A DNA stretch of 64,000 nt, from the NCBI GenBank assembly GCA_963676565.1, contig OY781089.1:1600001-1664000 (forward strand), given 5' to 3'. The DNA is from Halarcobacter sp. GTDB lineage: Bacteria; Campylobacterota; Campylobacteria; Campylobacterales; Arcobacteraceae. Positions 55,476 through 58,166 of this stretch are shown here, in pieces (position 1 is the first letter of the stretch; every line of letters starts with the position of its first letter). A program made the position numbers and the translations under genes. The notes beneath the pieces were generated by a model. It searched no databases. It was not told the origin of the DNA and worked only from the letters and a program-made list of their open reading frames with translations.

Positions 55476-55967
55476 ATGGATAGACTTTATGCACCTTGGA
55501 GATTTGAATACGTAACAGAGGAAAAAATTGAAGGGTGTGTATTTTGTCATATACATAAAAATGTTGACAAAGATGAAAAACTTGGAGTTTTATTTAGAGA
55601 TAAAAACTGTTATGTTGTGATGAATAAATATCCATATTCTCCTGGTCATATGATGATAATACCTAATTTTCATACCGATAAAATTGAAGACTTAGATGAA
55701 CAAACATGGATTGATATGTCTATTAGAGTTAGACAAGCTACAAAAATGCTCAAAGAAGTTTTAAATGCCCAAGGTGTCAATATAGGAATGAACCTTAGTA
55801 AAGCTGCAGGAGCAGGAATTGCTGAACATGTTCATTACCATGTCTTACCAAGATGGTTAGGTGATACAAACTTTATTTCATCTATAGGAAATACAAGGGT
55901 ATACCCAGTTGACTTTGATAAGATATATTTGGATCTTAAAGTACAGGCTTCTAAGTATTTTTTATAA
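55476..55967 (+). CDS. HIT-family hydrolase
   Basis: CVFC, NKYPYSPGH, HVHYHV. Confidence 0.93.
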   Translation: MDRLYAPWRFEYVTEEKIEGCVFCHIHKNVDKDEKLGVLFRDKNCYVVMNKYPYSPGHMMIIPNFHTDKIEDLDEQTWIDMSIRVRQATKMLKEVLNAQGVNIGMNLSKAAGAGIAEHVHYHVLPRWLGDTNFISSIGNTRVYPVDFDKIYLDLKVQASKYFL

Positions 55968-55983
55968 TTAAATTGGATTGTAA

Positions 55984-57111
55984 ATGGAACCTAAAAAAAT
56001 TATTGAATTTGTTAGACAAAAAGACTTTAAATTTATAAAAGAAATTGGTAGAGGTTCTTTTGGCGAAACAGTATTATTAGAAGATGAATATATTGATTAT
56101 GAATTTGTTTGCAAAAAATATTCACCTTTTGAATTTATAGATAAAGAAGCTTTTTATAAAAATTTCATTAATGAAATTAAAACTTTACACCTTCTTTACA
56201 ATAGAAATATTGTAAGAGTATTTAATTATTATTTATACCCAAAATTGCATCTAGGTTATTTGATGATGGAATATATCAATGGTGAAACAATTTCTGATTA
56301 TTTAGAAAAGTATCCAGAAAATTTGAATGATATATTTAAACAAGTAATTGAAGGGTTTTCATATTTAGAATCGCATAAAATATTACATAGAGACATTAGA
56401 GATAATAATATTCTTGTTGATGATAAAGGAATAGTAAAAATTATAGATTTTGGATTTTCGAAGAAAATAAATTTCGATGGTGATAATCAAAAGAGTATAT
56501 CAATTAATTGGATAAGCAGTGTACTACCTGATGATTTTAAAATGGAAATTTATGACCATACTACAGAAATTTTCTTTGTTGGTAAGTTGTTCGAAGACAT
56601 AATGAGCCAAATAAACAGTTCATTTAAATATAAAACTATATTAAAAAAAATGATTGAAGTAAATCCTAAACATAGAATTTCTTCTTTTAAACTAATTCTG
56701 AAAGAAATTAATGAAAAATCTTTTACTTTAAATTTGTTTAATAAAGATGAAAAAAGTATTTACAAAAATTTAGCAGAATCTTTTTCTACTGGAATAGTAA
56801 AAAGAGAAGAATCTTCTAATATAATTAGTGATATTGATAAAATCATTAAAAATCTTGATACATTGCATCAAAAGACAATGCTTGAAGATTTTGTTAATTC
56901 TAAACATTTATTAAGAGTATTTATAGATGGTGAATATCAGTTTTCAAATACGCTAGTTGAAGTTGAAAGTATTCAAAATTTTACTTCTTTCTTTAAAAGT
57001 ATTTCTAGAGAAAAACAAAATATAATTTTATATCATTTATCGACAAGGTTTGATGATGTTTTTAAATATTCAAATAATGTATATATTGATGATGAAGAAA
57101 TACCTTTCTAG
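55984..57111 (+). CDS. Hanks-type Ser/Thr protein kinase with an unknown C-terminal domain and acidic IPF tail
   Basis: GRGSFG, VCKK, helix-C Glu (NEI), HRDIRDNN, DFG; no TM; ends IDDEEIPF. Confidence 0.92.
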   Translation: MEPKKIIEFVRQKDFKFIKEIGRGSFGETVLLEDEYIDYEFVCKKYSPFEFIDKEAFYKNFINEIKTLHLLYNRNIVRVFNYYLYPKLHLGYLMMEYINGETISDYLEKYPENLNDIFKQVIEGFSYLESHKILHRDIRDNNILVDDKGIVKIIDFGFSKKINFDGDNQKSISINWISSVLPDDFKMEIYDHTTEIFFVGKLFEDIMSQINSSFKYKTILKKMIEVNPKHRISSFKLILKEINEKSFTLNLFNKDEKSIYKNLAESFSTGIVKREESSNIISDIDKIIKNLDTLHQKTMLEDFVNSKHLLRVFIDGEYQFSNTLVEVESIQNFTSFFKSISREKQNIILYHLSTRFDDVFKYSNNVYIDDEEIPF

Positions 57112-57177
57112 GTAAAGTAGTTATATATTTAGCATTATTATAAATTAAGTTATACTCAAAAACTATTTTTATGCTTT

Positions 57178-57300
57178 GTGTTATTTATCTCTTTTGCGTG
57201 ACTAAAAACTTGCTAAAACATTTTGTAAGAACGTTTCTTTACGCTTCAAACAGTTTACTCACTTGTTTTTATAAGAGATAAATAACGCTCGGCTTCAAAA
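57178..57300 (-). other. Structured non-coding element, copy 1 (ncRNA, MITE-like or ssDNA hairpin; class unknown)
   Basis: Perfect 14-bp inverted repeat 57180-57193/57273-57286 enclosing nested stems. Confidence 0.55.
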
Positions 57301-57402
57301 ATGTAGAGAGGTTGGATAAGGACATTTGGTTTATTTGTTACCATTTTATTTGAGTTTGTGTCGTATTAAATCTAGGTATGAAAGTTTACAGCTTTTTTCA
57401 GT

Positions 57403-57623
57403 CCAGACTTTGTTGAAGCCGGAAGGTTTTTAATTCTTTTCGAAAAAGCCTGAGAATGTTTGAGATAAAAAGGTGACTAAATGTCACGTTTTTATTGAGT
57501 TTCGCAAGGCAAAAAATAAGTACAAACATGTAGGGAAGCTCTGCCTTCAACAATGTGTCTGGTTGCTTTTTGCCATACTTTTTTCAACAAAAAAGTGTGA
57601 AAGCGTACTCACCTCATGAGTAC
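57403..57623 (+). other. Structured non-coding element, copy 2, plus two 3' hairpins
   Basis: Stems 57403-57418/57545-57562, 57465-57477/57483-57495, 57574-57584/57589-57599, 57605-57611/57617-57623. Confidence 0.55.
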
Positions 57624-57655
57624 AAGACCAAGAGAAGTATTTAACTCCTCAAAAT

Positions 57656-57925
57656 CTACTTATGGGAATGACTTTCTGCAATCAAGCCTTGAATTTTTTC
57701 ATAAACTTCATTAGCTTGTTCATCCTCAATTTTTCCTTCATTTACAGCATAAATAATATTTTGTAACTCTACAAGAAAAGACTCCATATCTCTTACTTCT
57801 TCCATATTCTCATCTGTTTGTTCTTTTTTTTCAATAATTGTATGTAAATCATATAGATATGCTTCTACCTCTGGTATCATTGTCTTTTCTATAACTTCTA
57901 ATAAATCTTTTTTAATCTGTGTCAT
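57656..57925 (-). CDS. Hypothetical acidic helical protein; start at 57925 preferred
   Basis: AAGGA upstream of MTQIKKDLL. Confidence 0.7.
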   Translation of the reverse strand: MTQIKKDLLEVIEKTMIPEVEAYLYDLHTIIEKKEQTDENMEEVRDMESFLVELQNIIYAVNEGKIEDEQANEVYEKIQGLIAESHSHK

Positions 57926-58166
57926 AATTTTATATATCCTTATATTTTTTATATTATATCTTATCAATCCCCTTATTTATATTTTTTTATAGCTTTAAAA
58001 TATGAAAATATAATTTTTCAATTCAAGTAAAATATTAAGTTACAAATTCTCTAATATATTTTATTTAAAATAAACATTAACTATATAAACTATATACAAT
58101 TTCTCTTCCAATTTACAAAAAAATTTAGTATATTATTCTTTGGGAAAAGTACAAGAAGGATAATAT

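Follow-up and report, generated by a model that had tools for sequence, protein, structure and literature searches.

A Hanks-type kinase of Halarcobacter with an acidic tail resembling the tip of the host single-stranded DNA-binding protein

A kinase gene and its domains

The stretch of DNA considered here, hereafter the window, comprises 64,000 nucleotides of a Halarcobacter sp. genome (GenBank assembly GCA_963676565.1, contig OY781089.1, positions 1,600,001 to 1,664,000 of the forward strand), the genome consisting of one 3.34-Mb contig. [quoted passage not shown] The parts of the gene, in positions of the window, are as follows; pLDDT stands for the predicted local distance difference test and ORF for open reading frame.

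55984..57111, + strand: whole gene, 375-residue Ser/Thr kinase with C-terminal domain and SSB-like tail (ORF list, Pfam, homologues)
56029..56688, + strand: Hanks-type protein kinase domain, residues about 16-235 (Pfam PF00069/PF07714, Foldseek, invariant residues)
56047-56064, + strand: Gly loop GRGSFG (residues 22-27)
56113-56118, + strand: Lys44/45
56386-56409, + strand: HRDIRDNN
56446-56454, + strand: DFG
56491-56499, + strand: KSI of the activation segment, near-invariant
56731..57069, + strand: C-terminal alpha/beta domain, residues about 250-362 (pLDDT >90)
57073..57108, + strand: disordered acidic tail NNVYIDDEEIPF, putative SSB-Ct mimic (ORF translation, pLDDT, tail profile, host match, PriA prediction)
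57109-57111, + strand: stop codon TAG of the kinase gene

That the gene encodes a kinase, as proposed by an initial annotation made from the letters alone, is borne out by Pfam, where Pkinase matches residues 16-178 with 104.4 bits (cut-off 31.7; E 9.1e-30) and PK_Tyr_Ser-Thr matches residues 16-235 with E 3.1e-23. Across an alignment of 118 homologous sequences K44, K45, R136, D137, N142, D155 and G157 are invariant, the DFG motif reads DLG or DYG in some relatives, and R11 and K13, two basic residues of the N-terminal extension, are near-invariant. Foldseek with the whole kinase model retrieved PknB of S. aureus (4eqm, E 2.2e-13) and PknB of M. tuberculosis (3orm, 3.8e-13). The profile score, the catalytic residues and the bilobal fold are those of the Hanks-type family and, as far as intactness can be read from residues and fold, the product is a catalytically intact Hanks-type Ser/Thr kinase. 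In the AlphaFold model of the full-length protein (mean pLDDT 87, predicted template modelling score 0.64) the kinase domain is followed by a confident alpha/beta domain and a disordered end, residues 366-375 of the tail lying undocked at pLDDT <50. At the locus Rfam gave no match, and promoter-like sites occur at the level of shuffled sequence (20 vs 19.8). Three oligo-dT RNA runs labelled as the same species gave 0 reads there, a result that has no bearing on expression.

Likeness to known kinases is confined to the catalytic part. With PknB/Stk1 the protein shares the kinase fold and the catalytic motifs, but it carries neither PASTA nor membrane part, reaches 81.4 bits against a cut-off of 450 for NCBIfam PknB_PASTA_kin, and has another C-terminal module. 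The same holds for the defence kinases in PADLOC: mad6 (5.2e-36) and PD-T4-6 (6e-27) match the kinase domain and the gene is likewise solitary, but only kinase residues about 12-208 are covered, and the C-domain and tail match no model; as regards MAD6 of the MADS system (NCBIfam NF047741), the kinase scores 66.6 bits against a cut-off of 460 and lacks conserved neighbours of the MADS type. Judging from these profiles, the kinase is not a full-length member of either PD-T4-6 or MAD6. Nor is it an SSB, Pfam returning no SSB match (PF00436) at E up to 1 and no oligonucleotide/oligosaccharide-binding (OB) fold being found.

The tail and the host SSB

PriA, RecO, RecG, chi, DnaG and further proteins dock onto the SSB-Ct, which in E. 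coli reads ...DFDDDIPF. The kinase product ends in NNVYIDDEEIPF followed by the stop, positions 57073-57111 reading AAT AAT GTA TAT ATT GAT GAT GAA GAA ATA CCT TTC TAG, and so fits this type of motif: a [DE]-rich run at the extreme C-terminus, then [ILV]-P-F and a free carboxylate, in a disordered segment. The initial annotation had assigned an SSB-tail mimic to 57076..57111, a span in which NVYIDDEEIPF and the stop are indeed found and which is accurate to within one codon.

Among all 5270 stop-to-stop frames of at least 80 residues in the whole genome, eight end in [ILVM]PF, and an acidic run followed by IPF closes only three, namely the kinase and two SSBs. The latter, found by an SSB family search, are the main SSB (182 residues, encoded beside an rpsF-like gene, tail EIDIDDDEIPF) and a second one of 144 residues with the tail IEIDIKDEDIPF (…IDIKDEDIPF); compared with these Ssb tails of its own genome, as had been suggested at the outset, the kinase tail resembles both. 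Next to the gene of the second SSB (locus L002, G000:C1:2898672-2901980) lie a 258-residue gene and two short ORFs, and this SSB gene may be part of an island or of a mobile element.

The relatives of the kinase end in the same way. A search of 5.8 billion proteins yielded 1038 relatives at E <=0.001. The top 120 share 45-100% identity and nearly all have 369-398 residues; 118 of these 120 end in [ILV]PF (76 in IPF, 33 in LPF and 9 in VPF), the two others being short (353 and 340 residues). P374 and F375 are invariant in an alignment of the 118, and acidic residues occupy position -4 in 115/118, -5 in 98/118 and -6 in 75/118. Since acidic-IPF frames in the genome are limited to the SSBs and the kinase, and since the homologues keep the tail, it is not a chance ending, and the resemblance first noticed in a single sequence stands.

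The resemblance extends to the particular SSB of each host. When each species is represented by a single genome, relatives are encoded in 340 genomes, and the best 80 loci of these 340 are spread over Campylobacterota, Bacteroidota, Pseudomonadota, Acidobacteriota, Planctomycetota, Spirochaetota, Actinomycetota, Melainabacteria and others. In 78 of the best 80 the kinase gene is intact and ends in [ILV]PF, those of L011 and L051 being broken by a stop. These 78 loci, together with the window gene and that of the near relative G006, gave 80 intact kinase genes, for which all SSB tails of the respective genomes were read. In 75/78 genomes residue -3 of the kinase is that of a tailed host SSB (I-I 41, L-L 33, V-V 1), and the identity sometimes spans 10-12 residues, as illustrated by the following pairs.

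L063 and L079: kinase tail FDDMDDDIPF, host SSB FDDMDDDIPF
L015: kinase tail FANFDDDIPF, host SSB FDNFDDDIPF
L019: kinase tail EDNFTDDIPF, host SSB VDEFTDDIPF
L028: kinase tail DEYDFVDIPF, host SSB EQYDFDDIPF
L039: kinase tail ...DDDVPF, host SSB ...DDDVPF
L010: kinase tail PVDDLPF, host SSB PVDDLPF (second of two SSBs)

Over the last 10 residues the mean identity between kinase and host tail is 5.85, against 4.59 with hosts shuffled, a value as high being reached in 0/5000 shuffles that ignore kinship; for positions -10 to -4, shuffled within one xPF class and again regardless of kinship, it is 2.90 against 2.25 (0/5000). Because these shuffles ignore kinship, a tree of the 80 kinases was built (last 12 residues omitted; quick IQ-TREE run, LG+G4), along which the state of the tail changes 6 times and that of the host 8 times. 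The telling cases for host matching lie inside a mainly-IPF clade, where the kinases of L040 (Chlorobiota) and L073 (Zixibacteria) end in LPF like their hosts and that of L039 ends in VPF like its host.

As to how such a match could arise, the identical tails are written in different synonymous codons from those of ssb (32/48 nucleotides alike in L063 and 37/48 in L079), so that they are not recent copies of the 3' end of ssb, and recent gene conversion from ssb was rejected for these two loci. In the window the last 27 nucleotides of the kinase gene (57085-57111) agree with those of the main ssb (L001) in 26 positions, including the TAG stop and the TTC codon for Phe, which is unusual in this genome of 28% G+C; going by the letters, an old exchange of the tail-coding end with ssb may have taken place in the window gene and in L028.

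It has also been observed that many Bacteroidota hosts (e.g. L097, L099, L102, L105, L107) encode, beside a tailed SSB ending in ...DDLPF, short SSB paralogues of 105-115 residues which have no acidic tail and end in ...ELL(M/L)LGK.

The ending might have nothing to do with SSB biology and be, for instance, a degradation or localisation tag that closes in acidic-IPF by chance. This is very improbable, given the rarity of acidic-IPF in the proteome outside the SSBs and the agreement with the host SSB in 75/78 genomes, at up to 10-12 identical residues.

Docking prediction and the C-terminal module

PriA, a protein of 615 residues, was found in the genome by its Pfam family. With the queries used, the RecO_C, ExoI C-terminal and DNA polymerase III chi families of Pfam were not found in this 99.97%-complete genome, which may thus have other SSB partners than E. 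coli has. The complex of PriA (52-row alignment) with the C-domain and tail of the kinase (59-row alignment) was predicted with a score of 0.73 (runs 0.72, 0.73 and 0.74), the mark being reached by 116/157 solved complexes and by 2/215 mismatched pairs. At least 68% of the contacts are common to the runs, and the partner has a pLDDT of at least 77. In the model PriA is touched by the tail only, through residues 125-131 and 133-136 of the chain, equivalent to 364-370 and 372-375 of the kinase; the folded C-domain makes no contact. On the side of PriA the contacts comprise residues 77, 80-81, 131, 248-258, 274-278 and 591-600.

The crystallographic SSB-Ct site of Klebsiella PriA (PDB 4NL8), as given in PMC5531588, is formed by W82, Y86, K370, R697 and Q701. 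A HMMER alignment to chain 4nl4_H (index offset 16, letters checked) maps these residues to F77, Y81, R283, A592 and L599 of the PriA considered here. The predicted contacts 77, 80-81, 274-278 and 591-600 coincide with or adjoin the residues aligned to the site, so that the kinase tail is predicted to occupy the site that corresponds to the solved SSB-Ct site. Thus the complex prediction called for by the initial annotation does place the tail in the SSB-Ct pocket of PriA.

The likeness to SSB-Ct embraces the extreme C-terminal position, disorder, the acidic run, the hydrophobic-Pro-Phe end and the lineage-specific I, L or V shared with the host. What differs is the carrier, which is a kinase or a PIN nuclease (see below) in place of an OB-fold DNA-binding protein, and the tether, which has about 10 residues in the kinase, while SSB has a long linker.

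If pockets for the SSB tip are indeed occupied, the protein could act mainly as a competitive blocker that displaces SSB from them, its kinase activity being secondary. The structure model, which reads the tail as an SSB tip, and the match between tail and host tip are in agreement with this explanation. Against it, the catalytic residues are invariant in 118 sequences, which argues for phosphotransfer as the selected activity, and a monomer that holds a single tail on a short tether would presumably be a poor competitor of tetrameric SSB; pure blocking is most improbable.

The C-domain is without recognisable relative, although fold searches do not prove a new fold, which it may or may not have. 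Folded alone, it reaches pLDDT 91.4; no Pfam family covers residues about 240-375 of the kinase, and the C-domain matches no family of Pfam, PHROG or PADLOC. Structural searches gave nothing convincing in the PDB (Foldseek, best E 0.46), no hit with Z >=5 in a wide search with VIA-align (best 4.7), a best E of 0.23 among the viral models of BFVD, and no usable match in the ESM Atlas. A basic C-domain that would bind nucleic acids was also considered and gets no support, the net charge being about neutral.

With the C-domain and tail alone as query, HMMER retrieved 134 proteins at E <=0.001 from 1.84 billion representatives. Among 133 proteins new to the analysis, many of them kinase fragments, 124 end in [ILVM]PF. 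In four of the proteins found (P0203, P0214, P0223 and P0247) a PIN_12 nuclease domain replaces the kinase N-terminally; their middle region matches the PADLOC candidate PDC-S34 (E 2e-9 to 5e-14), and their tails are [DE]-rich and end in PF, or in QF in the case of P0247. Two others (P0176 and P0209) have a DnaG-type CHC2 zinc ribbon preceding the kinase. Because the PIN_12 forms and the zinc-ribbon/kinase forms share the C-domain with its tail, this pair is the constant unit and the enzyme in front of it is exchangeable; the C-domain and tail are a portable module.

A module of this kind could also work in cis. Acidic tails that fold back on their own protein occur in SSB, T7 gp2.5 and T4 gp32, and the tail of the kinase might likewise fold onto a basic surface of the protein itself (kinase or C-domain), keeping the protein off until a ligand, e.g. 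single-stranded DNA, displaces it; the likeness to SSB would then reflect a shared physical trick, not shared partners. A short tether does join the tail immediately to the final strand of the C-domain, the DnaG-type zinc ribbon, a domain that reads single-stranded DNA, is present at the N-terminus of a minority of relatives, and R11 and K13 in the N-terminal extension are near-invariant and basic. These features notwithstanding, cis-regulation is improbable, for the full-length model leaves the tail undocked (pLDDT <50), the C-domain has a net charge of about 0 and the kinase domain a negative one (median -4.5 over 118 sequences), and self-binding gives no reason why I, L or V and further positions should track the host SSB. 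That the likeness amounts to nothing but a physical trick is unlikely on the same grounds.

Mobility, neighbourhood and possible roles

The kinase gene is part of an insertion relative to the nearest genome without the kinase, and its surroundings are as follows.

55476..55967, + strand: HIT-family gene, left border of the insertion (present in 25/25 genus genomes searched; Pfam HIT on the L003 orthologue)
55975..57629, no strand assigned: insertion of about 1.65 kb, comprising the kinase gene and 518 nucleotides downstream (blastn and tblastn against the loci of 24 genus genomes)
57656..57967, - strand: 103-residue ORF, right border of the insertion (directly after HIT in the kinase-less genome G010)

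The nearest relative without the kinase, G010 (locus L218), has flanks that are 95-98% identical, in the order murF, HIT gene, 103-residue ORF, oxidoreductase gene; as the same flanks occur there without the kinase, 55975-57629 is taken as an insertion that replaces 22 nucleotides. In G006 (L230) the kinase is 96% identical to that of the window and the neighbouring HIT gene only 70%, and in G003 (L222) a kinase of 57% identity occupies the same site beside a HIT gene of 81% identity. Such discordant identities of kinase and HIT gene at a common site in three genomes of the genus point to exchange at a hot spot. The kinase gene was found in 3/41 related genomes, this one included, and in 0/16 other families of the order that were sampled. 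In the public run X2 the word depth falls from about 70-120 over the HIT gene to about 4.8 over 55964-57586, so that the insertion seems to be a minority form in that run, summed contig depth being a rough measure. The kinase gene is, from these comparisons of sequences, horizontally mobile and accessory.

No full-length copy was found on phages (29 tblastn records) or on plasmids (132 tblastn records), where no record covers 80% of the query and the likeness is to the kinase domain only. Nor is any neighbour of the gene conserved: the ORFs within 4 kb number 667 in 79 loci and form 620 clusters, of which the largest is present in 4 loci. Pfam families of defence or mobile type make up 30/148 of the nearest neighbours (78 loci) against 7/101 of the ORFs lying 5 kb or more from it (Fisher odds ratio 3.4, p 0.0035), a classing that is the analyst's reading of Pfam names and a test in which related loci are not independent. 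The families so classed are, among nearest neighbours, Shedu SduA_C (4 loci), Schlafen AlbA_2 and a DUF4011 helicase (3 loci), Eco57I/MmeI-type, AbiJ, PIN, HicB and Fic, and further AAA_15/21, YhcG, methylases, transposases, integrase and resolvase.

Two local arrangements deserve mention on their own. In four proteobacterial loci a Shedu SduA_C gene lies directly after the kinase gene, on the opposite strand in L055, L074 and L076 and on the same strand in L075; no other neighbour recurs, and this adjacency could be a local two-gene arrangement. In three Bacteroidales loci (L043, L046 and L047) the kinase gene directly follows that of a Schlafen AlbA_2/HATPase_c_4 protein, and in L043 and L046 it is followed in turn by a DUF4011-AAA_11 helicase gene, which looks like a defence islet.

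The explanation that I favour, with somewhat better than even confidence, is that of a solitary mobile kinase which, by mimicking the SSB tip of its host, is targeted to the proteins that partner SSB. The tail of about 12 disordered residues would be the mimic ([DE][DE][DE]-[ILV]-P-F-COOH), and it most likely plugs into the sites, each made of a hydrophobic pocket and a basic lip, by which SSB-interacting proteins hold SSB. The owners of such pockets would be PriA and the like, either of the host or of an invading replicon, and docking would place them, or anything held along with them on single-stranded DNA, where the kinase can reach it; in the sister proteins a PIN nuclease takes the place of the kinase on the same module. 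A comparable case is YabT of Bacillus subtilis, a DNA-activated Hanks kinase that phosphorylates RecA and is said to bind DNA itself: both would be bacterial Ser/Thr kinases directed at the machinery of single-stranded DNA and recombination, but in YabT the link is the binding of DNA and here it would be a peptide mimic of the SSB tip. The kinase probably plays a role in conflict or defence; as with docking and with the identity of the substrates, I infer this role from the features reported above. A description of an SSB tip combined with a kinase or a defence protein was not found in the literature searched, which covered few subscription journals.

A number of observations weigh against the explanation by targeting through the SSB tip. 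As regards the host match, no tailed SSB was found in two genomes (L041 and L065, both bins), and 3/78 genomes are mismatched (L045, L069 and L044, the last a bin contig of 1.7 kb). The match is carried largely by few deep splits, and nearly all Bacteroidota kinases fall into a single LPF clade; independent contrasts number only 2 on well-supported branches (4 on all branches), and in random pairings about 1.7 of them run in the same direction, 0.3 show no difference and none is opposite, the sign test on the I/L contrasts (median p 0.5) having too few contrasts to reach significance. At position -7 the link is loose (F or M in both tails in 12 cases, in the kinase only in 8, in the host only in 4 and in neither in 53), and the independent-contrast test for this position is underpowered. 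As regards docking, a control in which PriA was swapped for an unrelated protein and the partner kept still scored 0.42, the best of three controls, the other two giving 0.00; the mapping of W82 and Y86 in the N-terminal part of PriA rests on a weak stretch of alignment (-3.9 bits); and the pass of the predicted complex may reflect memory of solved PriA-SSB-Ct structures (PDB 4NL8). With a similar complex already solved, the prediction demonstrates that the model takes the tail for an SSB tip, not that the tail binds. Finally, the C-domain has a median net charge of about 0 over 118 sequences, the enrichment of neighbours is subject to the limits given with it, many neighbours are housekeeping genes, and the gene of the window itself lies among housekeeping genes and in no defence island.

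The tail could, in another explanation, be a bait. According to a report on phage RecT annealases (10.1101/2020.04.14.041095), the host SSB is recognised by these proteins through its 7 C-terminal residues. On this possible but rather doubtful account the kinase is a decoy sensor of the abortive-infection type, to which phage proteins that need the host SSB tip bind in place of SSB. Their tentative identity would be that of RecT-like annealases, phage helicases, primases or polymerases, and binding or clustering might, with as little assurance, switch on the effector, be it kinase or PIN nuclease, and so shut down the infected cell or the phage replisome. In favour of a decoy, the gene occurs patchily, has moved horizontally and constitutes a module by itself; kinase and PIN_12 replace each other as effector, and the proteins with PIN match the PADLOC candidate PDC-S34; genes of defence or mobile type are about 3 times as frequent next to it as at a distance of at least 5 kb; and the best PADLOC matches of the kinase domain are the defence kinases mad6 and PD-T4-6. 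The reading of the host SSB tip by RecT would moreover explain a tail that follows the host: it shows the exact host tip to be a specificity determinant for proteins of mobile elements, the sort of partner that a host-matched tail could meet, with the difference that RecT binds the tip and the kinase carries it. On the other hand, the models of PADLOC hold no full-length member, only the kinase domain matching; the neighbours are housekeeping genes in the window and at many loci; and a kinase directed at proteins of the host accords with the same data. Taken to its end, the decoy account would, as an unlikely but conceivable outcome, make the C-domain with its host-matched tip the portable decoy module of an undescribed family of anti-phage sensors, each encoded by a single gene, and the decoy would be held to the form of the host SSB tip in every lineage that the gene enters.

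To sum up, the explanation by an SSB-tip mimic on a mobile kinase remains in two versions, one in which the pocket proteins are substrates of the kinase and one in which the tail is a bait that turns the enzyme on once phage proteins have seized it. Self-inhibition, pure competition and coincidence are less likely than these readings.

The idea of targeting through the SSB tip is directly testable. Genome maintenance in bacteria has its central docking peptide in the SSB tip, which is also a target for drugs and recombineering, and a widespread kinase family which, along with its PIN-nuclease sister, carries a host-tuned tip would exemplify how the mimicry of a short linear motif can aim an enzyme at the hub of replication and repair. 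If the targets are host proteins, the family would represent phospho-regulation of replication restart and repair in bacteria; if they are phage proteins, it would represent a new decoy-type immune sensor, and would explain phage readers of the SSB tip as a recurrent trigger of defence.

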